Below the pieces are notes generated by a model, which saw only the letters and a program-made list of their open reading frames with translations, ran no database searches and was not told the DNA's origin. DNA of 64,000 nt from Callorhinchus milii (lineage: Eukaryota). The position numbers and the translations under genes are program-made. Each line of letters opens with the position of its first letter. Positions within the stretch are counted from its first letter, which is position 1. Below, piece after piece: positions 6,578 to 63,394 of this stretch. Location of the stretch: NCBI RefSeq assembly GCF_018977255.1, contig NW_024704742.1, forward strand, positions 137,828,001 through 137,892,000, in the 5' to 3' direction.

Positions 6578-7130
6578 TAAGTGAGGATTGATTTGGAATG
6601 TTTAAAAGGCGAGATGGGCAGATACTCGAGGAAAAAGGGGGAAAAGACTGGGAAATGAGATTGAAAGATCTGACCTAATAAAATGGCAGATGAACCGAAC
6701 ATCCCCCTTCTTGTCTGTGTTCCTGGCCTGAGCGCAATGGGATGGCTTCTGAGGAAAGAGAGGCCATTCTCTGAGTGGGTGTGTCTGTGGCTCTTCGTCA
6801 CTGCTGAAGGCTATTTTCAGGCGGGGCCCTGCGGTGCTTCACTGTGCCTTGCGGTTTCCCTGCACGGAGTTGCTACATGTTTGCTGGTTATGCTGTTAGC
6901 ACCGACCTTTTAATTCCTTTTATGTTCTTCCCCTCTTCCTTTCCCCTGTCTCCATCTGTCTTATCCCATTGCTTTCTCTTTCTCTTCTCACCCTCAATTT
7001 CCCTCTCGCTCTTTACCGCCATTCTTCTCCCTCCTCCTCTCTCTCTTTCACTCCACCCCCCCCCTTCCCCCCTTACTTCCACTCTACCTTATTCTCTTCC
7101 CCCTCTCTATCCCTCTCTCCCCTCTCTCAG

Positions 7131-7285
7131 GGTGGGCTGAAGGCTGTTATCTGGACTGACGTCTTTCAGACCCTGGTGATGTTCTCGGGACAGCTGGCTG
7201 TCATCATCATTGGAGCCAAACAGGCGGGCGGGATGGGGAAGGTCTGGCAGATCGCCATGAAGGACGGCAAGATCTCTGGGATCGA
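7131..7285 (+). CDS. SLC5A6: SLC5A6 exon, [51 protein letters not shown]
   Basis: Sodium:solute symporter motif [10 protein letters not shown]; ~200-nt pyrimidine tract then cag|; donor GA|gtaag. Confidence 0.97.
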
Positions 7286-7846
7286 GTAAGCGATACAGAT
7301 ATAGAGTTTGGTTTGCAGACTCTTAAGCACAGTGATGGGTTTCCATTTATGTCAGAAACCTAGCTAACCAAAAACCAATTGTTTGTGGTCCGAGGCAGCA
7401 GGAGAAACTCGTCTCTCTTTTTTTAATTGTGGGTCAGGATCGGAGCAGTGTGTCTGAAGGCACGGTCAAAGAGGAAGGGCTTGAGACAGGCCTTGATGGA
7501 AGCAAGGGAGTGGGTGAGACGAAGGGATTCAGGCATGGAGTTCCAGAGGGTAGGGGCAGAAAAGGTGAAAGTCATTCTGCCAACGGTAGAGTGCGCAGGG
7601 CGGGAGATATGGCCCACCAAACAGGCAGCTGACAGGTGTTAAGGGGTGGCAGAGGTAGGGAGGAGCTCCACCATGCAGGGGTTTCAAAGTGGTGACAAAG
7701 ATGTGCAAATCGGCTGCGTTCACCTGCAAAATACATCGTGTTAAATCCTGTGAAACTTTGAGATGTTTTGATGACATGTTAAATTGTTAAATTATATCAA
7801 ATGCAAAGTATTATTGTTATTATTTATGTTTGTTTTTCCTCCACAG

Positions 7847-27036: not shown

Positions 27037-28639
27037 AGTGTCCTGGCGACAATTCCCCAGATAAAATTGTGGGACGATGCTGTGCACAAATGAGCTGCTG
27101 GTTAACCTGCAAAACACACGTCACCACCACAGAAGTCCATAGAATCATAGGAATCCTGCAAAGTGCTTCGAAACAACCTCCTGACATTGAATGGAGCGGC
27201 AGCAAATGTGAGGGTTATTATTTCTTCACCTGGAGGCTAATTAATGACCAAAATAAGGTTAACAGGAAGAGTGGTTAAGACAAGGTGCTGTGACTTGTTT
27301 AAAAATCCCCACTTAAGGGAGAGCTGGATGGGGGGAACAGGAGGGTGGGGATTCTGGAAGGATAAGATCAAATAGGATGAAGGTTCTTCATCTGAACCAA
27401 GAAGATTATTAGGCTGAGACCAGGTGGAATTTCAGGCCTCTTGTCTTGTGGGCAGAGGTTTATAGCCTGACCTTCTCCCCAACACATCGATACACAACAA
27501 CCCTGGGACCAGCTAACCCCAGATAACCTGGAGCTTCAATCACACTGAAGAGACAACAACGTTCGCCATTGATTCACACAGGGACAGGAGGAGGCCATTC
27601 AGGCCATCCAGCCTGCTCTGCCAGTTTATCAAATCGCGGCAGATCTTTAGACTCCCATCTCCCCCAACCTCCAGCTCTGTGCCTTCTCACCGACTCGCCG
27701 ACCAGTGAAAATAATTCCTCCCGTTTACGTCATCAAAACAGCAACAACAACAACAACAACAAGATTCCATTTATTGAGCGCCTTTCACGTCGGGAGGACG
27801 TCCCAAGTGGCGCTGGAGAAAAACCCACACCTTCCCCTTAATCAGGTCTCCTCCCAGCCCTGGGGTCCCCAAGCCTTGGCTCTTGCCAACCTGCGCATCA
27901 TTAGAAGAGGAAAGGTGCGTTCCTCCTCCAGAGAGAGACAGTGTTCTATTCCCGACACAGGAACTCTCAGAGGTTTGGTTTGGAGACTCAGGATCAGGAT
28001 CAGGATCAGGATCAGGGCGATTCAGACATGTGGCGAGACCAGGAATACCATCACTATCGCCCCCCGTGTGGTCACAACTGAACATCACAGCATTGCCCCC
28101 ACTACATTTTTTTCCTTAGTGGATAGCGCCACACGCTATCCGCTCACAGTGGTTACTGCAACAGTGGTTCGTTGACGTTCTTCTACCACCGCCTTGTGGT
28201 CACTGTCAGAAGTCGATACAACAATTTTCGGTAAAGCAGATCGATGTCTGTCTGACACTCGGGGAAACCATCACAGCTGCTTAAGAGCATCCAAACCAAT
28301 TCCATGCATCCCACCCACACTTAGAAATGTCTGAGATATTAATCGGAATGGAATGCACGGTCTCTCCCCCCGAGGGACGCATCAGGAAGGAGCAATCTTG
28401 ATACCATTATTATGAGGAATGTGTGAGGCAGGAATGTGTGGGACACGTAAAAAGGGGTGTAAGGCAAAGCTGGTTAGACTCCAGCAGTTACCCCTACACA
28501 TACTTTGGGGTTCCCCAGCCTTAGCTCATGCGAACCTGTGCATAATACTCTGCAGAATTAGGTAAGCAGGATGCGTCCATCCAGAGAGAGAATGCATTCC
28601 ATTCCAGACAAAGGAAGTTTTGCAGGTAACGTACCTGCA

Positions 28640-29715: not shown

Positions 29716-30584
29716 ATGTGAAACTTTCAGTCTGGTTTTGGTATTGTTAAGCAGTGATTGGTTTCCGGTGTGTCAGAACAAAATCTACTGCGGTCTGAAT
29801 TAGATGTCTGATTCTGATGTCAGTCTCTTCACACATCAACTTCCGCTGGTTTGAGGTTGAGTAAAACCTCATGGTGTGATATTCATTCCGCTGCCTGTGG
29901 CTAGAGTTCAACATGACTTAGTGTGACCGACAACCACAGAACTTTCTCCCTGGAAAGAGGCCATTTAGCTCATCGTATCTGTGAAGCCCGTCAAACGACC
30001 AACTAGCGATGATCCTCCTTGGTGGGGGGGTGGGGGGGGGAGGGACGCGGGATGTCCTTCAACCTGAACTGGCTCCAAGGTGGCATGTTTGGCAATGTAG
30101 CCAATGTCAGAATCGAACACCCCCCCACCCCCTGTGATGGTCCGGTTCCTGAGCCAGGAGGGTCCACAGTATCCCAGGGCTCTCACTGCTGATGACAGCC
30201 CGGCCCGGCTCAGCGGCAGGACCTGGAAGGGCCGACCAGTCACCGGGGGCCGGGAATCCTCCCCCTCAGCTCCTGTTAACCCCACAGCCAAAGCCCTGAC
30301 TAACGGGGAGGGGGGTCCTCGCTGGACAAACGACAGGAAAGCTGCCAGACAGCGCTCTCAATGATTTACTTGGTTGGACTCCAGCAGTTACCCCAACGCG
30401 CGCCCTGGGCTCCCCCCAGGCCTCGGCTCTTTGCAACCTGTGCCTAATACCCTCCTGAATTAGGTCAGCGGGAGGCCTCCCTCCGGGGGGGAGAGAGAGA
30501 GAGAGAGAGAGATTATTGCGATCATCTGTATTATTATGATATGACTCGGTGTGTCTCCTGTTGGGGGCAGCAATGACCGCCAGT

Positions 30585-30619: not shown

Positions 30620-31307
30620 GCGGGTTGTTCCCCCCCTCTCCCTCCCACTCACCCCCTCCCCCTCCCTCCCACTCCCCCCTCTCCCCCCACTCCCCCCCTC
30701 CCCTTCCCTCCCTCTCCCCCACTCCCTCTCCTCCCTCTCCCCCTCCCCTCTCCCTCCCACTCCCTCCCTCTCCCCCACTCCCCCCCACTCCCCCCTCTCC
30801 CACTCCCCCCCCTCTCCCCTCTCCCCCCTCTCCCTCCCACTCACCCCCTCCCCCCTCCCTCCCACTCCCCCGTCTCCCCACTCCCCTCTCCCTCCCTCTC
30901 CCCCCTCCCCCTCCCTCCCACTCCCTCCTCTCCCCCACTCCCCCCCACTCCCCCCTCTCCCACTCCCCCCACTCCCTCTCCCCCTCTCCCCCCTCTCCCT
31001 CCCACTCCCCCTCTCCCTCCCACTCCCCCCTCCCCTCCCACTCCCTCTCCCCTCCCCCCCTCTCCCTCCCACTCCTCCCCCTCTCCCTCCCACTCCCCCC
31101 TCTCCCCCCCTCCCCTCTCCCCCTCTCCCTCCCTCCCCCCCTCTCCCCCCTCTCCCCCCCTCCCCTCTCCCTCCCCTCTCCCCCCTCTCCCCCCCACTCC
31201 CCCCTCTCCCTCCCACTCCCCCCCTCTCCCTCCCACTCCCTCTCCTCTCCCCCCTCTCCCTCCCACTCCTCCCCCTCTCCCTCCCCCTCTCCCTCCACTC
31301 CCCCCTC
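30620..31307. repeat. C-rich pyrimidine low-complexity tract (ctccctcccactccccc)n
   Basis: Directly visible; G4-prone on the minus strand. Confidence 0.95.
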
Positions 31308-31419
31308 TGTGGCTCCAGATAAGGCAAAGCATCATCATCTTCCTCCTCCTCCTCTTCCTCATCACTGGACACAGACACAGCCCCAGTGGCCGCTCCCGGG
31401 AGGGTGTTGGCCGTCAGGA

Positions 31420-32586
31420 CGGGGGGTGGGGGACGGGGGAGTGAGGGGACAGGGGGAGTGTGTGAGGGGGAGTGGGGGAGGAGAGGGGGAGGGGTGGGGG
31501 ACAGGGGGAGTGTGTGAGGGGGAGGGGGAGGAGAGGGGGAGGGGGGTGTGAGGGAGGGGGGGTGTGAGGGGGAGGGGGAGTGAGGGGTGAGGGGGAGGGG
31601 GTGTGAGGGGGAGGGGGTGTGAGGGGGAGGGGTGTGTGAGGGTGGGGGGTGTGAGGGTGAGGGGGTGTGAGGGGAGGGGGTGTGAGGGGAGGGGGTGTGA
31701 GGGGGTGTGAGGGGGTGTGAGGGAGAGGGGGTGTGAGGGGAGAGGGGGTGTGAGGGTGAGGGGGGTGAGGGGGGTGTGAGGGGGAGGGAGGGGGAGGGGG
31801 TGTGAGGGGAGGGGGGTGTGAGGGCAGAGGGGGTGTGAGGGGAGGTGGGGGGGAGGGGGTGTGAGGGGGAGGGGTGTGAGGGGGAGGGGGGTGTGAGGGG
31901 GAGGGGGTGTGAGGGGGAGGGGTGTGAGGGGGAGGTGGGGGGAGGGGGTGTGAGGGGAGGGGGGTGTGAGGGGGAGGGGTGTGAGGGGAAGGGGGGTGTG
32001 AGGGGAGGGGGTGTGAGGAGGGGGTGTGAGGGGAGGGGGTGTGAGGGGAGGTGGGGGGAGGGGTGTGGGGGGGAGGGGGGTGTGGGGGGAGGGGGGTTGG
32101 GGGGAGGGGGTGTGAGGGCGAGGGGGGTGTGAGGGCGAGGGGTGTGAGGGCGAGGGGGGTGTGAGGGCGAGGGGGTGTGAGGGCGAGGGGGTGTGAGGGG
32201 AGGGGGTGTGAGGGGGAGGGGGGTGTGAGGGGGAGGGGGTGTGAGGGGGGTGTGAGGGGGGGTGGGGGGGAGGGGGTGTGAGGGGGGGGGGTTTTGAGGG
32301 GGAGGGGTGTGAGGGGGAGGGGGGTGTGAGGGGGAGGGGGTGAGGGGGGTGTGAGGGGGGAGGGGGGTGTGAGGGGTGAGGGGGTGAGGGGGAGGGGGTG
32401 TGAGGGAGGGGGGTGAGGGGGGTGTGAGGGGGAGGGGGTGTGAGGGGGTATTGAGGGGGTGAGGGGAGGGGTGTGAGGGGAGGGGGGGTGTGAGGGGAGG
32501 GGGGTGTGAGGGGGTATTTGAGGGGGTGAGGGGGGACAGGGGAGGGGGGTGTGAGGGTGAGGGGGTATTTGAGGGGGTGAGGGGGG
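31420..32586. repeat. G-rich tandem repeat (gagggggagggggtgt)n
   Basis: Directly visible; dense G-runs, G4-prone on +. Confidence 0.95.
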
Positions 32587-32732
32587 CCCCGAGGCTTCGC
32601 TGAGAGACTGAGATATTTCTGTATGTGTTGGAGGGGAAGACTGGACACACGGACCCCCCCCACCCCCCACCCCCACCCCCCGGCTGGTCAGTGAGGGGGA
32701 GGGGGAGAGGGAGAGGGGAGAGGGGTGGGGGG

Positions 32733-33412
32733 GGTGAGTCTGTGTGTGTGTGTGTGAGTCTCTGTGAGTCTGTGTGTGTGTGTGAGTCTCTGTGTGAGTC
32801 TGTGTGTGTGTGTGTGAGTCTCTGTGTGAGTCTGTGTGTGTGTGTGAGTCTCTGTGTGAGTCTGTGTGTGTGTGTGAGTGAGTCTCTGTGTGAGTCTGTG
32901 TGTGTGTGAGTCTCTGTGTGAGTCTGTGTGTGTGTGTGGAGTCTCTGTGTGAGTCTGTGTGTGTGTGTGAGTCTCTGTGTGTGTGTGTGAGTCTGTGTGT
33001 GTGTGTGTGAGTCTCTGTGTGAGTCTGTGTGTGTGTGTGAGTCTGTGTGTGTGTGTGTGTGAGTCTCTGTGTGAGTCTGTGTGTGTGTGTGAGTCTCTGT
33101 GTGTGTGTGTGAGTCTGTGTGTGTGTGTGTGAGTCTCTGTGTGAGTCTGTGTGTGTGTGTGTGAGTCTGTGTGTGTGTGTGTGAGTCTCTGTGTGAGTCT
33201 GTGTGTGTGTGTGAGTCTCTGTGTGAGTCTGTGTGGGTGTGTGTGAGTCTCTGTGAGTCTGTGTGTGAGTCTCTGTGTGTGTGTGAGTCTGTGTGTGTGT
33301 GTGTGTGTGTGAGTCTCTGTGTGAGTCTGTGTGTGTGTGTGAGTCTCTGTGTGTGTGTGAGTCTGTGTGTGTGTGTGTGAGTCTCTGTGAGTCTGTGTGT
33401 GTGTGTGTGTGT
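32733..33412. repeat. Compound satellite [gagtc(tc)(tg)n]n
   Basis: Directly visible. Confidence 0.95.
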
Positions 33413-33486
33413 TGAGGGTATGTCTGTCGGGGGCTGTGTTGTATATACAGTAATTCCCGGTGTGAGGAGCAGGGCTGGGGTTACAG

Positions 33487-33766
33487 TGAGCGAGGGAGCG
33501 AGGGAGGGAGGGAGGAGAGAGCGAGGGAGGGAGGAGGGAGGAGAGAGCGAGGGAGGGAGGAGGGAGGAGAGAGCGAGGAAGGAGGAGGAGGGAGGAGGAG
33601 GAGAAGAGGAGGGAGAAGAGCGAGGGAGGGCGGGAGGAGCGAGGGAGGAGGAGGGAGGAGAGAGCGAGTGAGGGCGGGAGGGAGGGAGGAGAGAGCGAGT
33701 GAGGGCGGGAGGGAGGGAGGAGAGAGCGAGTGAGGGCGGGAGGGAGGGAGGGAGGGAGGGAGGGAG
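33487..33766. repeat. Polypurine (ggga/gga)n tract
   Basis: Directly visible. Confidence 0.9.
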
Positions 33767-34036
33767 GTGTTGGCCGGACACAATATTGGGATATTTTTCT
33801 CTCAGTGTAACCTCTCCTCTCTCTCTCTCTCTCTCTCTCTGTCTCAGAGCTGTGGATTAATTGCCCATTTATGGAGAGACCTCGGTGTTCGCTCCGGGAG
33901 TGTCCGTGTTGGTCTGTGTCCTGTATCGAGACTCGGATCATCGATCACTTTCCCAATCGCTGTTGATCGGGCGCTCATTGATCGCAGACGATCCACACTC
34001 GCCCTTCATTGGGTATTGCCTCCAGCAATCGGCTGT

Positions 34037-34304
34037 GGATTATTGATCGGATCGCTGGGGTTATTGATTAGGTTCTACTCTGGATTATTGATCTGGACCC
34101 CGGATTATTGACCAGGATTATTGACCCTGACGCGCTCTGGGATATTGACCAAGGATCTACTGTGGATTATCGATCGGATCGCTGGATTATTGATCAGGTG
34201 CTGGTGGAATAGTGATCAGGTCTCCTGATTATTGATCAAGACTCTGGAATATTGATAAGGATCTACCGTGGATTATTGATCAGGATTACTCTGGGTTATC
34301 GATC
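34037..34304 (+). repeat. Thirteen degenerate GGATTATTGATC motifs upstream of the TESK1 ATG
   Basis: Copies at about 34037, 34058, 34082, 34102, 34115, 34139, 34164, 34184, 34207, 34227, 34246, 34270, 34293. Confidence 0.85.
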
Positions 34305-34380
34305 CCCCCACCTTGCCCGTGGTGGGGAGTTTGGGGCGATGTGAGCCACACCCCCGCGGTTGATCTGACGGAGGCGGGGG

Positions 34381-34602
34381 ATGGAGAGGGAGGCAGGGCT
34401 CAGGCTGGCCCTGTCGGGGGAGGTGGGGTCTGGCTGCCCCCAGACCCCGGACACCGGCCCCCCCTGGGCTCCGGTCGGGGGCTGCAGCCGCCCACGGCCC
34501 TCCTCCTACCGTGCCCTGCGCAGCGCCGTCTCCACACTCGCCAGGATCGACGACTTCTACTGCGAGAAGATCGGCTCCGGATTCTTCTCCGAGGTTTTTA
34601 AG
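34381..34602 (+). CDS. TESK1: TESK1 (testis-associated actin remodelling kinase 1) first coding exon
   Basis: MEREAG...[36 protein letters not shown]|gtaaag; [13 protein letters not shown] matches human TESK1; includes the Gly-rich loop. Likely acceptor at 33847/33848 (long CT tract, gtctcag|), implying a ~530-nt 5' UTR and an upstream non-coding exon. Confidence 0.93.
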
Positions 34603-36078
34603 GTAAAGCGTGGTCAGGGACTGATCAAGCCGGACCCCCGACCCAGAGACCCCCTCCCCACCCCACGACCCGGCCCCCCCCTAGCCCGGCCCCCTGACCC
34701 GACCTCAGCTGCTTGCACTCTCGCTCCCAGTCGGGAGGTTATAATAATAATAATCTTTGCGTTTGATATAACACCGTGGTGTTAGGATGTCGCAAAGCGC
34801 TTCACTGTAAAGTGTAGTGACTGTGTATTTTGTGGGTGAAACGCTGCAGCCACAGCAGCGACCCACCAACAGCCATGGATTGAGCGGCCAATTTTATCTG
34901 AACAGGGCACAGATGAGAGCTCGGTTGTTGGTCAGGTGGCATTTCAGGGCCTCTTGGTATTGTGAGAGAGGGAGAGAGAGAGAGAGAGAGAGAGAAGGAA
35001 ATAGATCGAGAGGAAGAAAAGGGATTGCTGCAATATGGTGAGAGCGAGGAAGAGTGCAGGAGAAATGCGCACACACACACACACACGCACACGCACGCAC
35101 ACCGAGCGGAGGCAGGGAAAGAAAAAGGAGAAAGAAGGGAATGTGAGAGAGAGCGAGCGAGAGAGAGAGGAGAATATGTGAGAGAGAGAGAGAACATGAG
35201 AGAGAGAAAGAGAGAGAATGTGAGAGAACGAGAGGGAATGAGAGGGAAGAGAGAGGGAGTGGGGAGAGGAAAGAGAGAGAGAGAGAGAGAGGATGGGGCG
35301 GGGGCCGAGGGTACCTGTCCTGTTCAGCCTATTGTTAAACTTTAAGCCTTCGTGTTGTGTGTGACGTTAATCTGTGCTTAACTCTGGGTATTTAGGGCAT
35401 AGTGACCGACAGACTGAGGGACGAGGTGTGTGTGTGTGTGTGTGTTTGGGGGGGTGGGGGGGGGAGTGGGGGGAGAGGTCAGGAGAGCGCGAGTTCGGTG
35501 CGAGTTTTTAAAAAAAATTCCTGAATGTCTCAGAAAAGGGAGTTTCTCTCTCTGTCGCTCTCTCTCTCTCTCTCTCTCTCTCTCGCTCTCTCTCCTGGTT
35601 TCCTGGCCAACAAATAAACAGTTAAATCGGTCACTCACTCCACGACTGTTTTGGACACACTGCTGAGCCAAACTGGCTGCCGTGTTTCTCCCACAAAACA
35701 CACAGTCACTCCACAGTGTATCCTGTGACCTCCAAACCCCACATCAGCCTCTCCGCTCCCTCCGCTCGGTAGCCACCGGCCTGCTGCAAGTCTCCCGCAC
35801 TTCCCGCTCCACCACCTGCGGTCGGGCATTCAGCATCTCTGCCCCCCCCACCCCCCCCACCACCCACCCCACATTCTGGAACTCTATCCCGCAATCCCTC
35901 CGCCTCACCCCCTCTGTTGCCTCCTTCACGTCCCGTCTAAGGGCCTCGCTCTCCGCCGGTGCCTTCGGCCACGCTCGAACCCAGGTCTCTCGCTGCAAGG
36001 CGAGTGCTCTAACCACTGAGCGACATTCTTTTTTTAGCAGCGAGCGGGTAAAATGGAGGCTGTGAGCGGAAGCAGCGT

Positions 36079-37055
36079 CTACGACTGTGTGATTTTCAGG
36101 CCGGGCCCTGTCCTCGCTGAAGCCTTAGCCGCTGGGTTTTCCTTCAGCCGCTCGGAGTCGCAGTTCAGATTACGGTAGCGCGAGGTCCCGGCTGAGGGCC
36201 GGAGGCAGAGGGACGGGAAGGTGAATCCTCCCAGGCAGCAACCAGGGCACGACAGCATGTCGTCCTGTTCGATGCCGGGCGGGGAGCTTTCGGTGTTTTC
36301 CGTGCCCGGGGAACCATCCTCCTCCCCCTGACCGCCATCATCACCATCCTCAGTCTCGCTGTGCTGTGGTTTGCTCACTACCACATGCCCGTCGTCCCTG
36401 GCAACGGCGGCCATCTTGTCGTTAACCAGAGGCTCCCAGGGCTGGTCGTACCTGGCGACGGTGGCCGTCTTGTCGTTGACCAGAAGTGGCCAGGGCTGGT
36501 TGTCCATGGCAATGGTGGGGGCCTCGACCGGGCCGGAGGAGCAGGCAGTGGGCTCGGGCCCCTCCCCCGCTGGGGGCTCAGAGCCGCCCTCCGTCCCCAT
36601 CCAATACCTCGAGGGGAGGGGCGCAGAAAAGTCAAAGTGCACCAAGTTGCGGCGGGAGAGGGCGGGGCTGGAGGGGAGAGAACGGCAGTTCCGCGGCTGG
36701 AAGTTAGGCCTCGGGAACTCACACCTGACATCCATCATGGGCTCGGGGGTCACTGGCAGGTTCATCTGGTAGGAGGCCGGGGCCGGCAAGTCAAAGGTCA
36801 GGGAGATGACCGACTTGCTGGGAGAGTCGTACAACTTAATCTTCCCGCCCTTCAGGTCCTCCCGGCGCGAGAAGGGGTTGATCCTGGTCGGGGCTCGCTG
36901 GAGGGGGGAGAACTGGTCGTCTTCGCTGCCCGCAGCCAGGGGTTTGGGGGAGAACATGTCGGAGTGGCTGCGGGATAACCTGGTCTCACACTGAACCCGG
37001 AGGCTGCACGTCGGCCTTCGGACCTGGCTACGTGCTGTGTCTTTATCGCTCTTAC
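36079..37055 (-). CDS. TESK1: TESK1 last coding exon (C-terminal regulatory tail)
   Basis: RLSRSHSDMF, RINPFSRREDLKGGKIKL, CRSLPSSP, CPGCCLG..RYRNLNC match human TESK1; stop TAG at 36081-36079; the three minus exons total 1206 nt, in frame. Confidence 0.95.
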
Positions 37056-37669
37056 CTGAGGAGGGAGGGAGGGGAGGAGGGGAGGGGAGAAGAGGGAGAT
37101 GCAGAGGAAGGAGAGAGAGAGAGAGAGAACGATAAAGAGGGGGGGGGAGAGGAGAGAAAAAGAGAGGGCAAATGGAAGAGAGGGACAGAATGAGGGAGAG
37201 AGAGGAAAGATTTGAGCTTCAGGTTTATTGGGTTACTGACAGCCACAAAAAATACTTATAAATAAGGGTTTAATGAGTCTATAAGCGGCTCATACCGTTT
37301 CCAGGCAATTATTGTCAAATATATTTGCAGGTAAACGTGGCGCAGAGCCACGAGGTGAGCGAGTAAGTAATCTGGGGGACTGTCGGCCAGACACCAGGAG
37401 AGAGAGAGAGACTCGCTTCTCTTTTCCCGACAGCGCTGTGGGATCGTTAATGTTCGCCGCAACAGAACTCAGACGGGGAGTAAGGTTTAACGTTTCACCC
37501 GAAGGACAGCGTCTCTGACAATGCGTTGCTCTCTCTCTCGGGCTCTCTCTCTCCCCCCCCAGTAAGCCTGGCCTGTGAGCTCAGAGTCCCCCACACGAGG
37601 CGGGGGGAGCTCTTCACTCCGATCGTGCTGCCCTCCTGGTTCCCCCCCCCGTGCTGAGACTCTGGTTAC

Positions 37670-37811
37670 CGTGTGTTGCTGTCAGTCTCTCGGTGCCCGC
37701 TCGATCCCACTTGGGTGTTGCCGTTCCCTCCCCAGGCTCCCGGTGTTGGTCCAGGATGATCTCCAGCCGCTGTGTGATCACCGTGAAGGCCGGACGCCGC
37801 GTTGAGTCCAT
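37670..37811 (-). CDS. TESK1: TESK1 penultimate exon, MDSTRRPAFTVITQRLEIILDQHREP...ATH
   Basis: Minus strand cag|ATG ... G|gtaacc; human LEPSTRAPFTEITQHLEWILEQ; phase fits last exon. Confidence 0.9.
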
Positions 37812-38121
37812 CTGCCCCGGAGACACGGCAGAGAAACCACACAACGAACAACAATAATAATCCTTGCATTTAATATAGCGCCCCATCACATCGTTGAGGC
37901 ATCTCAAAGCGCTTATACTGTAAACTGAGGGCATATTTTGAGGGTGAGGATTTGAGCAGTGTCCCACAAACAGTCGTGGATTGAGTGACTCCCTTTTTTT
38001 TGGAGGGATTATTAGCCCCAGAGAGCGATCCGCCAATGGCATAACACCCGGGTTCCCACTTTGTGCTGGTAACCAGGCGTGTGGCGTAAGGAGTAAGGAA
38101 TCGAACCCGGGTTCTCTTGCT

Positions 38122-38435
38122 TAATAATCCTTGCATTTGATATAGCGCTTTTCACATTGGGAGGACGTCCCAAAGCGCTTCACAGAACACACTGTAAAGT
38201 GAATTGATTGTATATTTGTGGGCGAACGCGGCAGCCAATTGCGCACAGCAATGTCCCACAAACAGTCGTAGATTGAAAATGACCAATTTTTATTGTTTTT
38301 GGTTTTGGAGGGATTATTATTAGGCTCTGTGTGGAGTAAGGAAACTTGCCCAAGGTTTCGCCCTCTGCCTGGAATTGAACTCAGGTCTCTCACTTGCAAA
38401 GCGAGTGCTCTAACCACTGAGCTACAGGACTCCAC
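38122..38435 (-). mobile_element. Young SINE nested in the head of an older SINE (37855-38455), in a TESK1 intron
   Basis: Reverse complement of 44599-44930; host SINE head continues on both sides. Confidence 0.9.
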
Positions 38436-38593
38436 GAGTGTGCGAGTGCGCTAATCTCGCCTCGCAAGTCAGAGAACCCGGGACTTCACACTTATCATTG
38501 CTGTGAGACAGGACCGTTGAGGACAGGCTGAGGCAGGGCGGAGTTGGGGGTCTCAGTGTGGGGCAGGGGGTGGGAGGCCCTGATGTCACTCAC

Positions 38594-38680
38594 ATCACAA
38601 CAGTCCACAGCGAGACACAGGAAGGGAAGCGGGCAGTCTCCCACCAGATTCTGGAACGCAGCAACGTCCAGCCCGAAGTC
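38594..38680 (-). CDS. TESK1: TESK1 exon, DFGLDVAAFQNLVGDCPLPFLCLAVDCCD (end of kinase domain)
   Basis: Minus strand cag|GAC...GAT|gtgag; human DFGLDVPAFRTLVGDDCPLPFLLLAIHCCN. Confidence 0.95.
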
Positions 38681-39539
38681 CTGCCGGGAAAAACAGATAG
38701 AGAATATTAATAATATTAATAATAATAAAGTATTTTTGCTCATGCAAAACTTTTAGGAAGCTGAAATATATCAAGAATAGTAACACCCATTTATATGTCG
38801 CGTGGCAGTGCTATTGGTCTGGCTGTTCACCACTGAAAACCACCAAGAAACTACCTCTGCATCGTGATTTAAACTGAAATAACATAATAATCCTTGCCGT
38901 TTAATAATATTATTAATAATAATACTTGCATTTGATACAGCGTCTTTCACATCAGGAGGATGACCCAAAGTGTTTCACAGCATTTACTGTAAAGTGTATC
39001 GACTGTGTATTTTGTGGGTGAAGTGGGGCAACCAATTTGATTACAGCGACGTCCCCCAAACATCCGTGCAGTGGATGACCGATTTTATCTGGGGGGATTG
39101 TTGGCCAGGACACCGGGAAAGAGAAACTCCTCTTCTCCTTTCCAATTAGTGTCACTGGTCATTGATTTCATGGCTGTTTGCGGGCCGCTGCTGTGTGCAA
39201 ATTGGCTGCCACAAATACCCAGTCACTACACTTTACCGTGCGTCCCGTGAAGCTCTTTGAGCAGTCTCGATGACGTGATATCAAATGCAAGTATTATTAT
39301 GTGTTAAGGGTTGCAGGGGGTGTTGTTTCTATATCAAGGCACGAGGTGGCGCAGTGAGACTGACCTGACATGTCAATGGCTGTGGTTCTGATCGCTGACC
39401 TCTTGTCAGGGGAGGGGGGAAAGGACGGGAACATGAGCCACAATCACCTTAATACTACCCCCTGTCCCCACCGCCCCAGATGGGGACATGGCAAACAACA
39501 TGTTGATGTATTTTGAAAAAGGATTTTTTGGGGTCTGGG

Positions 39540-40595
39540 GAAGCCCATCACCGTGATCCGCCGGGTGTCTGACACACACACACACACACACACACACAAA
39601 CCCATCACCGTGATCAGCGGGTGACGGACACACACACAGACTCATCACCGTCACCAGCCGGGTGTCTGACACACACACACAAACACACACACACCCACAC
39701 ACAAACCCATCACTGTGACCAGCCGGGTGTCTGACACACACACACACACAAACCCATCACCGTGACCAGCCGGGTGTCTGTCACACACACACAAACACAC
39801 ACACACCCACACACAAACCCATCACCATGACCAGCCGGGTGTCTGTCACACACACAAACCATCACCGTGACCAGCCGGGTGTCTGTCACACACGCAAACC
39901 CATCACCGTGACCAGCCGGGTGTCTGACACACACACAAACCCATCACCGTGACCAGCCGGGTGTCTGACACACACACAAACCCATCACCGTGACCAGTGG
40001 GTGTCTGACACACACACAAACCCATCACCGTGACCAGCCGGGTGTCTGACACACACAGACACCCTCACCGTGACCAGCCGAGTGTCTGACCCACACAGAC
40101 ACCCTCACCGTGACCAGCCGGGTGTCTGTCACACACACAAACCCATCACTGTGACCAGCCGGGTGTCTGACACACACACACACCCATCACCGTGACCAGC
40201 CGGGTGTCTGACACACACACACACCCATCACCGTGACCAGCCGGGTGTCTGACACACACACAAACCCATCACCGTGACCAGCCGGGTGTCTGACACACAC
40301 ACACACCCGTCACCGTGACCAGCCGGGTGTCTGACACACACACACACACCCATCACCGTGACCAGCCGGGTGTCTGACACACACACAAACCCATCACCGT
40401 GACCAGCCGGGTGTCTGACACACACAAACCCTCACCGTGACCAGCCGGGTGTCTGACACACCCACAAACCCATCACCGTGACCAGCCGGGTGTCTGACAC
40501 ACACAAGCCCGTCACCGTGACCAGCCGGGTGTCTGACACACACACAAACCAGCCGGTGCTACACACAAAACCGTGACCTGCCGGGTGTCTGACAC
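39540..40595. repeat. Minisatellite, ~40-45-bp unit cccatcaccgtgaccagccgggtgtctga(ca)n aa, roughly 24 copies, running into the N-gap
   Basis: Directly visible. Confidence 0.95.
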
Positions 40596-40620
40596 NNNNN
40601 NNNNNNNNNNNNNNNNNNNN
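40596..40620. other. Assembly gap (25 N); a single N also at 25092
   Basis: Directly visible. Confidence 1.
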
Positions 40621-41179
40621 CATCTACAACAACAATAATAATTACTCAATTAATTAATTATCATACCATTTGATATAGTGTCTTATCATGTAATTAAGAC
40701 ATCTCAAAGCGTTTCACAGGCTGTACTGTGAAGTGTAGTGACTGCGTATTCTGTGAGTGAGCTAATTTTCACACAGCAGTGTCCCACAAACAGCCATGAA
40801 GTGAGTGGCCAATTTGACTGGAGTGTTTGTTATCCAGGATGCTGGGAGAGGGCAATTCCCTTCTCTTTTCATTATGGGATCCTTAACATCCACCTGAACA
40901 GGTATAGATGGGTATCGAACAGTGTCTCTGACTATGTGGGGCTCTCTCTCCCTCTCTCTCCCCAGAGCTGTGCTGGAGCATCAGCCTGGACTGTGAGTCC
41001 CCGACCTGGGGGCTCGAACCCACAACCCGAAAGGCGGGGGCTGAGCCAGTGTGAGACACAGAGCTGTTGCTCTGGGAACACATGAGCCTCTGCCTCAGGA
41101 AGTTGTACAACTGGTCGTTTAGCCACAATCTCTCACAGAGTCAGGATTTCAGCAATGGCTCACAGTAAATAATGGCTCC

Positions 41180-41650
41180 GCAACAACAACAGCAACAAGA
41201 TTACATTTGTACAGCGCCTTTCACGTCGGGAGGAGGTCCCAAGGCGCTGGACAGAGTACAGCATTTCCGACCCGAGCTGGGGTCGGGGGGGAAGGGGTGT
41301 GGCCGATGGCATGGTCGAAGAGGAGGGTCTTGAGACGGCACTTGAAGGAGGCTAAGAAGGGGGTGAAGCGGAGTGACTGGGGGATGGAATTCCAGAGGTT
41401 GGGGCAGAGTGGCTGAAGGCCCTCCCACCAATAGTGGGCGGGTGGGTCGGGGGACGTGGAGCAGCCGGAGCCGCTCAGTGGAGGAAGCGGGCGGGTTGGT
41501 AGGGGGTTTGGAGGTCGCAGAGGTAGGGGGGTGAAGCCATGGAGGGCTTTGTAGGTGAGGACCAGGATCCTGAACTGGATCCTCTGAAGGACAGAGAGCT
41601 AATGGAGTCGGGCGAGAGTGGGGAGATGGGGTTTTGGAGAGGACACAAAC
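41180..41650 (-). mobile_element. L2 LINE 3' fragment
   Basis: L2 tail and RIQFxILVLTYKALHG-type segment. Confidence 0.88.
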
Positions 41651-42181
41651 CACCATCTCCCCATCACGTCTCAGCCACTCTCGCTGCCACTGCCTGGTCA
41701 GGAGGTCCTGGGTCAAACTCCACGCTGGTTAGACTCCGGCAGTTACCCCAACGCACTGCTTCTATACAATCATAGAATTATACAACACAGAAGGAGGCCA
41801 ATCGGCCCATGTGAAGCGCTTTGGGATGACCTCCCAACGTGAAAAGCGCTATATCAAATGCAAGGATTATTATTATTATTATTGGGCAAGTTTCCTTACT
41901 CCACACGCCTGATAGTAATCCCTCAAGAAAAAAAACAATAATGAAATTGTTCACTTCAATCCACGACTGTTTGTGGGACATTGCTGTGCACAATTGGCTG
42001 CCGCGTTCGCCCACAAATATACAGTCAATTCACTTTACAGTATATTCTGTGAAGCGCTTTGAGACTTCGAGAAGATGTGAAAAGCGCTATATCAAATGCA
42101 ATGATTATTATTATTATTCCACCACTCTCTCCCAATAGATCTGCAAACCTGTTCTCCCAATTAATTATCCACTCTACTCTA

Positions 42182-43147
42182 TATGTATCCGGATGTCACC
42201 CAACTCTACCTCTCTGCCCCCACCCTCAACTCCAGGACCACTGCTGTCCTGACAGACTGTCTGTCGGACATCAAGTCCTGGATGAGGGCAAACTTCCTAC
42301 AGTTGAATGTGAACAAGACTGAGGCCCTCCTGATAGGCCCTCAGCACCTCAGGCTCCGGCACCATCACCCTCCATGGTTGCACACTTCAACTCACCAACT
42401 CACCGCCAGTCAGGAACCCGGGTGTCTTGTTCGACACTCAACTGTCTTTCTCCCCCACATTCAAGCCATGACCCGCTCTGCCTTCCCTCACCTCCGTAAC
42501 ATCGCCCGACTCCGCCACTACCTCACCCCTCAGGCACTGAAACTCTTGTTCGTGCCTTCATCACCTCCAGGCTCGACTATGCAAACCCCCTGCGTGTCGG
42601 CCTTCCCAACTCCTCCCTCCACAGGCTGCAGATAATCCAGAACTATGCCGCCCGTGTCCTCTCCCGCACCAAACTCCGTGACCCCATCTCCCCCACTCTC
42701 GCCCGACTCCATTGGCTCCCTATCCTTCAGAGGATCCAGTTCAAGATCCTGGTCCTCATATACAAAGCCCTCCATGGCCTCGCCCCACCCCACCTCTGCG
42801 ACCTCCTAAACCCCTAACAACCCGCCCGTTTCCTCCGCTCAGCGGCTCTGGCTGCTCCACGTCCCCCAACCCACCCACCCGACCATTGCCGGGAGAACCT
42901 TCAGCCACTCTGCCCCCAACCTCTGGAACTCCATCCCCCAATCACTCCGCCTCACCCCCTCCTTAGCCTCCTTCAAGTCCCGCCTCAAGACCTTCCTCTT
43001 CGACCATTCTATCGGCCACCCCCCTTCCCCTCCCTTGTCCCCCCCTGACCCCAGCTCGGGTCGGAAATGCTGTACACTGTCCAGCGCCTTGGGACGTCCT
43101 CCCGACGTGACAGGCTCTATACAAATGTAATCTTGTTGTTGTTGTTG
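42182..43147 (+). mobile_element. L2 LINE 3' ~1 kb
   Basis: YPDVTQLYL, DIKSWMRANFLQLNVNKTE, LRNIARLRHYL; full tail. Confidence 0.92.
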
Positions 43148-44384
43148 TACTCTCTTAAAAATTGTATGTGTGTGGATGGGTGTGTTTGTGTCTCTCTCTC
43201 TTTCAGTCTGTGTGTGTGCCTCTCGGTATATGTGTGTGTGTGTGTCTCCCTCTGGCATTGAATGGTTAATGGTCTAGGCCTCCAGGCACACTCCATTCCT
43301 GCTCCCAACAGCAGAGTGTCGTATTTCACAGAAGCCGTCCTCCGTTACACCACACAGGGGGGGCAGAACCAAAACCAAACACTCACACATGTCACCACAC
43401 ACACAGGCTACACGCAGCCCGGGTCACACACAGCCCAGCACAGCACGGCTCCATCATACACACACCTGCACATCACCACCCAGTGTGCACTGTCTACAGC
43501 TCCATAGTGAGCGTGTTCTCTACTGTGTATGTTTATCTAATTGAGTACATGTCTCTCTCGCTCTCTTCATCTACCCTCAGAATCAAGGCCTCCTCTGTGA
43601 CCGTTTCCTGAGCCAGGAGGGTCTGCAGTATTCCAGGCACTGCTGATCGGCCGGACCTGGAAGGGCAGAGCAAGCACTGTGGGCAGGGAATCCTCCCACG
43701 CAGCTCCTGTAAACCCTGCAGCCAAAGCCCTAACAGGGAGGGTGGTCCTCGCTGGACAAGAGGGAACGTTGGCCAGACAGTGATATCAATGACAAGCTAA
43801 TGTGGTTTTAGTTGGTTAGACTCCAGCAGTTACCCCAACGCACACTCTGGGCTCCCCCCTCAAGCCTTGGCTCTTGCCAACCTGAGCCTAATACTCTCCG
43901 GAATTAGGTAAGCAGGATACGACCCTCCAGGGAGAGGGAGAGAGAGAGAGAGAGAGAGAGAGTGCGTATCCCATTCCAACAATCTTTCTCTGGGATTTCC
44001 AGGTGTAGGTGGGATGCATGGAATTCTCAGTTTGTTTTTTTGCCCATCCGGGTGTCTGACACACGTGGAAACCCATCACCGTTGCTTGAGAGTCTCCAAA
44101 CCAAACCGGGAATTCCCTGCCTCCCACCTACACACGGAAATCCCAGAGATAGATTTGGAGACTCTTAAGGTTGGTGACGGGTTTCCGTCTGGGTCAGATA
44201 CCCGGCTGGGCAAAAAAAATATCCCCATCCGATCTCACGGAACCTGAGCCCAACACAGATAATAGGACATATCGGGATATGTGTGTGGATAAGGAAACAC
44301 GGATCCTCACTGCACGACTAGACTGGTAAATGATCATCTTGAACCTGCTGTAGGTTCAGTGATAACACAAACACGTGAGTGGCT

Positions 44385-44419
<35 letters not shown>

Positions 44420-44598
44420 AAACACACGCGCGCTCCCTCTTCCGAGATAATCCACAGTCCAACGGTACAGGATAATAATAATCAGCTTCTACTCCAGCGT
44501 CAGACATGTCACAGGCTCTCAAAGTGCCTCCTAGTGACCAGCTAGAGAGCGTAGTGACCAAGTTTGTGGGTGAAGGTTGCAGGTAACGTCCCATCACC

Positions 44599-44930
44599 GT
44601 GGAGTCCTGTAGCTCAGTGGTTGAGCACTCGCTTTGCAAGTGAGAGACCTGAGTTCAATTCCAGGCAGAGGGCGAAACCTCGGGCAAGTTTCCTTACTCC
44701 ACACAGAGCCTAATAATAATCCCTCCAAAACAAAAACAATAATAAATTGGTCATTTTCAATCTACGACTGTTTGTGGGACATTGCTGTGCGCAATTGGCT
44801 GCCGCGTTCGCCCACAAATATAGTCAATTCACTTTACAGTGTGTTCTGTGAAGCGCTTTGGGACGTCCTCCCGACGTGAAAAGCGCTATATCAAATGCAA
44901 GGATTATTATTATTATTATTATTATTATCA
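44599..44930 (+). mobile_element. Young tRNA-derived SINE with L2-type tail
   Basis: tRNA-Ala-like head gtagctcagtggttgagc..gagttcaattcc; near-identical copies at 38122-38435 (-), 55907-56229 (+), 63395-63724 (-). Confidence 0.92.
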
Positions 44931-52887: not shown

Positions 52888-53540
52888 TGCTGTGTTTGTG
52901 GTGTGGGCAAGTGCTGCTGGTGACGGTGGCTGTACTGTACACAGTGAACTCAGAGAGCAAAGCAGTGAGGCTTCGAACTGGAGGTTGGAGCCTGAGGCCA
53001 CACTCACACATTCTCTTTACAAACAGGCAGAGCCGTTCCCAGCCTCACACCAGCTCCTCTCTCTGGGCAGCGTCAATGATTATCTGACAATATTCATCAT
53101 AGTAATCCTTGCATATTACAGGGCCTTGTCACGTATTCGAGACGTCTCAAAGCACTTCACAGGATACACTGTAAAGTGTAGTGACGGTAATTTTGTGGGC
53201 GAAACGCGGAGGCCAATTGCGCACAGCAGCGTCCCACAAACAGTCGTGGATTGAGTGACCATCGTGACCACATTATCATTATTATTTATAATTATTATTA
53301 CCCCCAGAAAGCGATCCGCCAATCGACTAACAAACATTCCTATTTATTGCTGGTAAACAGCAGTGAGAGGAGCTGGTGTGAGGCTGGGAACGGCTCTGCC
53401 TGTTTGTAAAGAGAATGTGTGAGTGTGGCCTCAGGCTCCAACCTCCAGTTCGAAGCCTCACTGCTTTGCTCTCTGAGTTCACTGTGTACAGGACAGCCAC
53501 CGTCACCAGCAGCACTTGCATCCACACCACAAACACAGCA
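52888..53540. repeat. Inverted repeat, ~178-bp arms (52888-53065 and 53361-53540)
   Basis: Arms are near-exact reverse complements; the same peptide appears in + and - ORFs of the track. Confidence 0.95.
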
Positions 53541-56231: not shown

Positions 56232-56932
56232 GTCTCTAACACTGGGATCAGCCTCACTGCTCTCCTCTCTCTCACACTGGGATCAGCCTCACTGCTCTCC
56301 TCTATCTCTCACACTGGGATCAGCCTCACTGCTCTCCTCTATCTCTAACACTGGGATCAGCCTCACTGCTCTCCTCTATCTCTAACACTGGGATCAGCCT
56401 CACTGCTCTCCTCTATCTCTAACACTGGGATCAGCCTCACTGCTCTCCTCTATCTCTAACACTGGGATCAGCCTCACTGCTCTCCTCTATCTCTAACACT
56501 GGGATCAGCCTCACTGCTCTCCTCTATCTCTAACACTGGGATCAGCCTCACTGCTCTCCTCTATCTCTAACACTGGGATCAGCCTCACTGCTCTCCTCTA
56601 TCTCTAACACTGGGATAAGCCTCACTGCTCTCCTCTATCTCTAACACTGGGATCAACCTCACTGCTCTCCTCTATCTCTAACACTGGGATCAGCCTCACT
56701 GCTCTCCTCTGTCTCTAACACTGGGATCAGCCTCACTGCTCTCCTCTATCTCTAACACTGGGATCAGCCTCACTGCTCTCCTCTATCTCTCACACTGGGA
56801 TCAGCCTCACTGCTCTCCTCTATCTCTCACACTGGGATCAGCCTCACTGCTCTCCTCTATCTCTAACACTGGGATCAGCCTCACTGCTCTCCTCTATCTC
56901 TAACACTGGGATCAGCCTCACTGCTCTCCTCT
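56232..56932. repeat. Minisatellite, 37-bp unit ctctaacactgggatcagcctcactgctctcctctat x19
   Basis: Counted from actggg positions 56241 to 56905. Confidence 0.97.
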
Positions 56933-57289
56933 GTGTTAGCTCTGGGGACTGGTATCTGTCATTGGAATGAACAGAGTGTGTGTGCAGTGACCTCTGACGT
57001 TGCCATCGGGAGTTCTAGAGAGGAAGCGGATTAACACACGCTCTGGGTTTAATGATTTTCTCTTGTTTAATTATAAATCTGTTCACTCAGCCGTCTGTCC
57101 CAGTTTCACCGCAAATCCAGCAGTTGTCTTGCTAATGGCATGTGTAACCCACTCACGGGATGTTCAGTAATAACACAATGCCCACAATGTCAAACATTCT
57201 CAGATCTTTGGAGTAATTACCATCAGTTGTAGTGACTGTTTAAGCGTAATTTAGGCGTCAGGTTTGATCCACAGCTTTCCTTTCTCCCC

Positions 57290-60800: not shown

Positions 60801-61717
60801 ACATCCAAAACGCACAGACGCCAGACTTAACAGCAAATCCTGTGAAGAGCCTTGTGACATTTTGACAACTTGATGAGGCGCTGTATCAGATGCAAGGATT
60901 ATTATAATTAATATTATTATTTATTAATCCACAAGATTCTGCCACAGCCCCGGTTCCAAGTCGAAGATTTCACATCCTTACAAGCCTCTGAGTGTGTAGA
61001 ACACGTCTCCTAACCTCTCGCTTTGCTATTTTAATTCTGTTTCATCTGGTTAGCGATTCACCGACCAGTGGAAATAATTCCTCCCTGTTTGCGTCATCAA
61101 CACTAGGGAGATGGTGGAAGCGGATCATGTCAAGTCTTTCAAGTGCAAGTTAGATAGATTTCTTTTAGAAAATAATATTTTGGAGTACAGTATGAGTCAT
61201 TTGAGACATTACATACAGTAAGTGTTGTATGGCTTGGAAGAACCAGACAACTTTGTATCTAAGGTTTCACCCACAAATATACAGTCAATTCACTTTACAG
61301 TGTGTTCTGTGAAGCGCTTTGGGACGTCCTCCCGACGTGAAAAGCGCTATATCAAATGCAAGAATTATTATTATTATTATATCAAATGCAAGGATTATTT
61401 TATTTTTACGTAAGGTTCCCAAAGCTTTCCACTGTGTTGTAGTCTAATCCACACAGAGTTGCTATCAACATTTCCATGACTGTAGCAAACGACTACTAGG
61501 ATGGTGGAAGGCAAACTAGATGGACCTTGGTCTTTTTTCGTCCAGCAAATTCTTATGCTCCTAAAAATCCACTTATCATTTAAACCTCTCCCCCAGGTCT
61601 CCTCTCCACCTGTGGGAGTGTGCATGGCTCTGGGTTGTCCAGGCTTTACCAGTGATACCCTGTTGTAGCCGCCGTTGCTGGCTATTTCCCTTAGAATCGA
61701 TCCCTCACTGACAGCAG

Positions 61718-62215
61718 ACTGTCTGACACACACAGAAACCCATCACCGTTGCTTAACAGTCTCCAAACCAAGCTGACATTTCCACGCATCCCACCTACAC
61801 ACGGAAATCCCAGAGATTGATTGCTCAAATGGGATGTGCACTCTCTCTCTCCCTGGAGGAACACATCCTGCTTACCTAATTCTGGAGAGTATTAGGCGCA
61901 GGTTGGCAAGAGCCAAGAGTGTGTGTTGGGGTAATTGAAGGAGTCTAACTTGCTAAAATGGCATAGCTTGCCATTGATATCACTCTCTGGCAAGCTTTCC
62001 TGCTGCTTGTCCAGTTAGGACCACCCTCCCCATTAAGGCTTTGGCTTGGAGAGTTAACAGGAGCTGAGGGGGAGGATTCCCTGCCCTGAGTGACTGGTCA
62101 GCCCTTCCAGGTCCTGCCGATGAGCCAGGCCGTACTGTTCTGTCATCAGCAGTGAGAGCCCTGGAATACTGCAGACCCATCTGGCTCAGGAACCGGACTA
62201 GAGACCGTCACAGAG
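61718..62215 (-). repeat. Unclassified ~500-bp interspersed repeat (family X); copies at 565-1040, 30130-30500, 43595-44220, partial at 7305-7375, 27830-27990, 28245-28610, 41725-41755
   Basis: Shared blocks gaaacccatcacc, cccacctacac..gaaatcccagaga, cctgcttacctaattc, ggttggcaagagcc, gggaggattccctgccc; strand assigned from the A-rich end at 44213-44219. Confidence 0.85.
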
Positions 62216-62397
62216 AGCTGGCTCGATTCCAACACTGGGCTGCACGAAAGAAAATATGCCCCCCCATCACCATACACAACCCACCCGCCCTCACCCCCAT
62301 CCTCCTCAGGGATTGGGGCAGTGTCTGAACTCTGCCCAAATCATGGAACAAGGAGCGGGGAGGTGTGTGGGGAGTGAGAGAGCAATATATTTTGCAT

Positions 62398-62980: not shown

Positions 62981-63334
62981 TCAACTGCTGCAGATGCTGT
63001 TGATGGACACCATGGCTGGATCGACCAATCCCATCTCCTCGTGCTCGTTAACACACAGCTGGTACCCGCAGCCTCGTCGCTTGTTCTGGAGAGGAACCAC
63101 GGAGCTGGGGGCGGGGCCTCTGCCAGGGCGGGGCCTGGGGGGCAGCAGGAAGCCCACGCTGCCCGCGATCAGCATATGCCAGATACTGTGGATGTAGAAA
63201 TAGTTCTCCTCCGTCTCCACAAAAGTGTAGAGAGCCACGGCGGACATGGCGATCACCGTGCCGGGAAACAGGTAGAAAACCCAGCGCTTCCACGTGGGCG
63301 GGTAACAGCGGCGCCTGCGGATCGTGCGGATTGT
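62981..63334 (-). CDS. TMEM8B: TMEM8B last coding exon, TIRTIRRRRCYPPTWKRWVFYL...SINSICSS*
   Basis: Minus strand atccag|ACA; NYFYIHSIWHMLIAGSVGFLLPPR and RGCGYQLC match human TMEM8B; upstream exons beyond the window. Confidence 0.93.
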   Translation of the reverse strand, partial: TIRTIRRRRCYPPTWKRWVFYLFPGTVIAMSAVALYTFVETEENYFYIHSIWHMLIAGSVGFLLPPRPRPGRGPAPSSVVPLQNKRRGCGYQLCVNEHEEMGLVDPAMVSINSICSS

Positions 63335-63394
63335 CTGGATAGGGAGAAAGAAACATCAGAGCTCCGGAATATCATACAAGAACGTGAAGTCCTG

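Follow-up and report, generated by a model that had tools for sequence, protein, structure and literature searches.

The stretch of DNA analysed here, which we call the window, comprises 64,000 nt of the elephant shark Callorhinchus milii (GCF_018977255.1, NW_024704742.1, positions 137,828,001–137,892,000, forward strand), and it contains a gene for the kinase TESK1 whose coding exons are distributed over both strands. The first coding exon is on the plus strand (34381–34602), where it reads open from its Met and has a GT donor at its end. The last three are on the minus strand (38680–38594, 37811–37670 and 37055–36079), with AG/GT sites present and matching phases. The only Ns in the whole window are at 25092 and 40596–40620, with none between 34602 and 36079. 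Open frames, splice sites and N positions therefore confirm an arrangement given in a preliminary description of this locus, in which exon 1 and the last three exons stand on opposite strands with no gap between them. The same description had reported no minus-strand AATAAA or ATTAAA between the stop codon and exon 1, and there is indeed none in 34601–36100; it had also placed a plus-strand fragment of a long interspersed nuclear element (LINE), which we take to be of the L2 family, against the head of a minus-strand short interspersed nuclear element (SINE), and these are found at 35867–35972 and from 35975 respectively. As a description of the assembled sequence, the split and partly reversed layout of TESK1 is confirmed.

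All four exons are identical to the named TESK1 of the species (P0236; XP_042192131.1 / XP_007907093.1; 667 residues), at the 74, 29, 47 and 324 residues compared, and correspond to its residues 1–74, 267–295, 296–342 and 344–667. The window differs from this protein in that residues 75–266 are absent and that the last three exons are on the other strand. When this 192-residue core was compared with the window by tblastn, a check that the preliminary description had proposed for the whole assembly, nothing better than an E value of 5.6 was obtained, a result that holds for the window only. None of the 6-residue words of the core was found in the six frames of the window, while a control on the stretch that spans the next two exons recovered 58 of its 67 ten-residue words. 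The motifs VMVLKMN, HRDLTSKN, DFGLAEK and GSPYWMAPE, for which no exons had been seen, all lie within residues 75–266, and their absence is borne out. Because the four exons are identical to P0236 and the core residues are absent, both halves belong to one gene from which 192 codons are missing.

Full-length relatives match these four exons only (eight queries, among the matches listed; tiled search of three). Among longer proteins, exon 1 is best matched by those of sharks and rays (66–71%), which their sources name TESK1 or TESK2-like. The last exon matches a 499-residue model named TESK1 of C. milii at 99%, P0236 sits in the cluster of that model, and protein searches with the last exon gave a single cluster above 70% identity. 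From its identity to the species' own named TESK1, the gene appears to be the orthologue of TESK1 and not of TESK2. In a second named model (P0215) residues 180–266 are joined to the last exons, and in P0237 residues 225–266 are joined to them likewise; both are presumably genome-based models. A whole N-terminal kinase domain is not found at the locus in the window; P0236 has one, and so, judging by their length, do the RNA contigs described below.

Contigs from four of the 24 listed runs (X1, X2, X5 and X6; two studies, four samples) were aligned to the stretch 34300–39530. All figures are taken from the pieces, joints and loose ends listed, and contigs of this kind drop rare variants. X5 and X6 have no RNA on record and were only guessed as RNA by the tool; we take them as RNA because their contigs go from exon to exon at GT-AG sites. 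Record 17 of X5 (2769 letters) matches +34300–34604 (record positions 482–786), −38682..38594 (1359–1447), −37811..37666 (1448–1593) and −37051..36026 (1594–2619), and record 22 of X6 (2649 letters) consists of the same pieces in reverse. Thus both spliced runs contain a single contig with exon 1, 572 unaligned letters and the three last exons, in normal order and in one reading direction. If two letters are returned to the insert at each splice site, where they had matched the GT and AG of the introns by chance, the 572 letters become 576 bases, or 192 codons. The spacing between the two anchor motifs is 192 residues in 108 of the 129 relatives having both (214 proteins examined), and the sum of the exons with the insert, computed before P0236 was seen, is 2004 bases, equal to 667 residues and a stop. 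These two records are collinear and show transcripts of an intact gene in normal exon order in both spliced runs.

Upstream of 34300 the spliced contigs have a further 481 and 487 letters and so reach approximately to a (CT)n tract at 33812–33845 that is followed by CAG. The first exon may have a long 5' untranslated region (UTR) with a decayed 20-base repeat in 33812–34380, or a non-coding exon may lie ahead of it. Each of the four runs has a base other than the window's at two coding positions (36273 and 36834), where P0236 has the window's residue; by codon reading the difference at 36273 exchanges Ile for Leu and that at 36834 is silent.

The contigs of X1 and X2, for which there is no library record, cross exon-intron borders at a depth of 5–11, as expected of genomic DNA, and run from exon 1 into the intron, to 34743 and 34768. 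At the other half of the gene, record 2 of X1 and record 10 of X2 cover the last exon together with the 53 bases that begin the 3' UTR; their match breaks off at 36026, beyond which 125 and 171 unaligned letters follow respectively. The contigs of X5 and X6 also end their match at 36026, with 150 and 24 letters beyond. As the aligner places other contigs through SINE sequence (records 4 and 5 of X1), the stop at 36026 is no effect of masking and reflects a true difference. Since all four runs depart at this position, the false join is placed at 36025/36026, where the SINE head has its 5' end, rather than at 35975; the contact of the L2 fragment with the SINE, previously put forward as the candidate breakpoint, is the other end of the same head. 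That the contigs run unbroken past this point suggests that the join of the window is no common alternative in those samples. Contig depth, which is no copy number, is 8.9 on exon 1 against 7.3 on the last exon in X1, and 6.9 against 6.4–7.0 in X2; it is zero in X1 at 37625–37799, over the second-last exon, a hole that proves nothing by itself.

An insertion polymorphism of the SINE head at 35975–36025 was also considered and is unlikely, as the tails of X2 and X5 (171 and 150 letters) would then lie on approximately 35800–35974, and none does among the pieces listed. A separate departure is seen in record 3 of X1 (1112 letters), which matches 37169–37427 and then continues for 748 unaligned letters; from 37398 onward, contigs of X2 and X5 keep to the window. 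An insertion that is polymorphic in the last intron might account for this departure, as might a contig that runs through a repeat.

Because the spliced contigs have the normal order and the unspliced contigs lack the window's join, the evidence supports a misassembly, one of the two possibilities that the preliminary description had left standing. We consider it very probable that this is an ordinary single-copy elephant shark TESK1, wrongly assembled. The split TESK1 is almost certainly no real feature, and there would be nothing new in how the gene works, only a standard TESK1 with known types of draft-assembly error. We propose two breaks in the assembly, one within the SINE head of the first intron and one at the 1-kb minisatellite that precedes the third-last exon, and suppose that the exons for residues 75–266, situated between both breaks, were omitted from this place. 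The piece 36026–40595 with the last three exons would then have been attached in reverse to the left edge, with a token gap of 25 N on its right. The 41-base unit of the minisatellite is found only to the left of this gap and has no copy to the right of it, and the two sides of the gap therefore need not be neighbours. A flip of 36026–40595 would be the simplest repair, giving exon 1, the intron, the missing exons, the minisatellite, the last three exons, the UTR and then 40621 onward; it needs one false gapless join, as against two for the flip of about 36.0–44.6 kb proposed previously. As a candidate mechanism, gap filling or scaffolding may have extended the right edge and then joined this extension, reverse-complemented, to the left edge, which would produce precisely the layout seen.

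Several points weigh against this reading of the locus. Annotators may complete models like P0236 from transcripts, and P0236 is then no proof of a collinear assembly. The 572 unaligned letters presumably encode the kinase core, as judged from their length. If at least 31 letters are asked for beyond the stop, the 24 letters of X6 are too few and three of the four runs count as bridging 36026. The assembled join is absent from both unspliced runs among the pieces listed, where a short crossing contig could escape notice, and the contigs come from four samples, none of them identified as the assembled animal. At the right end of the reversed piece, which is outside the aligned 34300–39530, the choice of 40621 as the true neighbour of 36026 would be a supposition.

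Table 1. Features of the TESK1 locus and its surroundings, in window coordinates.
Feature	Position	Strand	Basis
TESK1 first coding exon (residues 1–74)	34381–34602	+	74/74 identical to P0236; GT donor; in spliced contigs of X5 and X6
Start of intron 3' of first coding exon, ending at the probable false join	34603–36025	+	X1/X2 unspliced contigs reach 34743/34768; remainder probably intron, by position
Decayed L2-type LINE fragment	35867–35972	+	78% over 106 bases to 42914–43019
tRNA-like SINE head, body and about 9 first bases of young copies absent; last sequence of left piece	35975–36025	-	45–46/52 identical to three young copies
Very probable false join, left piece / reversed piece	36025–36026		Contigs of 4/4 runs stop at 36026
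TESK1 3' UTR, first 53 bases	36026–36078	-	Covered by spliced contigs of X5 and X6
TESK1 last coding exon and stop codon (residues 343–667)	36079–37055	-	324/324 whole codons (344–667) identical to P0236; splice sites; spliced contigs
TESK1 second-last exon (residues 296–342)	37670–37811	-	47/47 identical to P0236; spliced contigs
Young full-length SINE in intron	38122–38436	-	97% to copies at 44.6–44.9 kb and 63.4–63.7 kb
TESK1 third-last exon (residues 267–295, DFGLD at start)	38594–38680	-	29/29 identical to P0236; spliced contigs
Minisatellite, unit about 41 bases, running into gap; likely cause of local assembly break	39541–40595		Tandem Repeats Finder 39572–40550, 18.3 copies of 41-mer, 93%
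Assembly gap, 25 N; proposed right end of reversed piece	40596–40620		N listing
Young full-length SINE, right breakpoint of the preliminary description (unsupported)	44599–44924	+	Copy comparison; atcac (5 bases) on both sides

The sequenced animal might instead carry a rare but real inversion allele of TESK1, with the core exons in the gap or deleted, which is absent from the four samples and would be a null allele, probably heterozygous. We regard this as very improbable. The join at 36025/36026 is made without a gap and at the edge of a SINE head, as a real inversion might be, but the inversion is unseen in 4/4 runs. Young SINE copies (92–97%) are common in the window, and other structural polymorphism seems to exist nearby, where record 3 of X1 departs at 37427; however, a real inversion needs neither an assembly gap nor a minisatellite on one side only nor missing exons, and all three coincide with the event here. 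Furthermore P0236 has the window's alleles at every residue, including that at 36273 where the four runs differ, and yet is a whole protein. If true, such a rare inversion would mean that a chimaera naturally carries a null allele of a kinase that regulates actin, with the gene intact in the four other samples.

The preliminary description had proposed that two SINE heads in inverted orientation, at 36.0 and 44.6 kb, recombined and thereby turned over the 8.6 kb between them, in the genome or in the assembler, which we now find extremely improbable. The flip would restore the exon order, and the two heads are inverted and identical at 45/52 positions, but the copies at 38426 (46/52) and 63715 (45/52) are equal or better, and the longest word shared with the head at 35975–36025 is 11 bases for the 44.6-kb copy against 22. 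As young SINE copies recur in the window, some inverted partner is to be expected for this head. The likeness between the head, given previously as 35975–36021, and that at about 44612–44668 is therefore real as to its inversion, although the head ends at 36025 and the likeness is unspecific. A transcript of the flipped arrangement should enter the SINE head, yet the pieces of all four runs stop at 36026, just outside it, even though either head matches at least 3 more letters. Positions 44608–44757 are identical at 148/152 to a SINE copy inside the aligned stretch, and the 150-letter tail of X5 record 17 would be expected to fall on this 97%-identical copy; no such piece is found there among the pieces listed, though pieces of 60 letters are. 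The 5-base atcac on both sides of the 44.6-kb SINE, which had been pointed out as a possible duplication, also argues against this breakpoint, and a search for a stray SINE 5' end as the mark of a right breakpoint gave only whole SINE heads and unrelated words. Neither a specific and highly similar inverted pair at both breakpoints nor a breakpoint inside a shared repeat, as in a repeat-mediated inversion, is observed, and a SINE-mediated inversion is unsupported.

The layout might also be real in the species, with trans-splicing of opposite-strand transcripts or two inverted paralogues, and indeed both halves are intact, expressed and present in one RNA contig joined at canonical splice sites, which is equally expected from a collinear gene. 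The unspliced contigs of X1 and X2, however, disagree with the join and show no split layout in genomic DNA; they depart at 36026, a position within the 3' UTR that calls for no splice site. In addition, the two halves match one protein without a difference, a single protein cluster exceeds 70% identity to the last exon and contig depth is similar on exon 1 and the last exon (a weak point). We give this explanation next to no credence, and its low ranking in the preliminary description was right.

Inversions between inverted repeats, such as those of F8 intron 1 and intron 22 and Alu-Alu events, have long and highly similar arms at both breakpoints and involve no loss of exons. The TESK1 locus is like them in having gene parts on opposite strands and inverted repeat copies in the region, whereas its arm is approximately 50 bases at 87% and unspecific, part of its exons is missing and the join is absent from other individuals. 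The gap here is exactly 25 N, a length at which the gap-filling program PBJelly probably writes its overfilled gaps. PBJelly treats runs of at least 25 N as gaps and extends the flanks into the gap (English et al. 2012, PMC3504050; PMC9635638), gaps can be overfilled (PMC8848313), and where PBJelly's overfilled gaps had no explanation, its authors suspected assembly mistakes, inversions and gaps given too small a size (PMC3504050, PMC9635638); the accessible parts of these accounts mention neither an extension attached in reverse nor 25 N as the notation of an overfilled gap. False gene losses have been described by Kim et al. 2022 (PMC9516821), among them the types 'missing exon' and 'translocation', with at least one such error in approximately 26–60% of genes in older assemblies. 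The present case is like these errors in that a gene on one scaffold is split and lacks exons, and in that the DNA is rich in GC and repeats (GC of 63% at 36–37 kb and 66–72% at 30–33 kb), and unlike them in that a strand flip is not named as a type of its own in the accessible part of that paper, which by the same part does not cover this species. A literature search found no report of this TESK1 misassembly; the one paper found for this gene and genus speaks of TESK1 in a teleost, and the accessible part of a paper on TESK1 gene structure (PMC4372362) contains nothing bearing on the join.

The importance of a wrongly assembled TESK1 is for curation only, as a flipped and exon-less TESK1 could pass for gene loss or rearrangement; the elephant shark evolves slowly and often serves as a reference for jawed vertebrates. 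For this purpose the join is pinned to 36025/36026, and the kinase core amounts to 576 coding bases to be recovered. Where the strand switches without a gap within a few kilobases of a run of 25 N, an artefact should be the first suspicion.

Just upstream of TESK1, approximately 3 kb of low-complexity arrays (30620–33770) comprise a C-rich block followed by G-rich blocks, a GT-rich minisatellite and GGAG repeats, and are likely to be another weak spot of the assembly. Two other genes were recognized in the window. The last coding exon of a TMEM8-type gene lies at 62981–63355 on the minus strand (Pfam DUF3522, E 1.6e-10), convergent with the plus orientation of TESK1; we presume it to be TMEM8B, which we take to be near TESK1 in human. 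Exons of a sodium:solute symporter gene are found on the plus strand at about 7–15 kb (Pfam SSF, E 1.6e-5 for 6900–7286), and presumably this gene resembles SLC5A6. An inverted repeat of 180 bases with 97.8% identity is formed by 52888–53065 and 53361–53540, with a spacer of about 295 bases, and no other place matches at that level. At 56233–56946 a minisatellite directly follows the tail of a young SINE; its unit is about 37 bases long and its copies are 96–98% identical. Finally, copies of a dispersed repeat family were seen by eye in both orientations at 43560–44200, 61700–62250, 30100–30500 and 28230–28620, and this family holds words that, also by eye, form the unit of the minisatellite at 39.5–40.6 kb.

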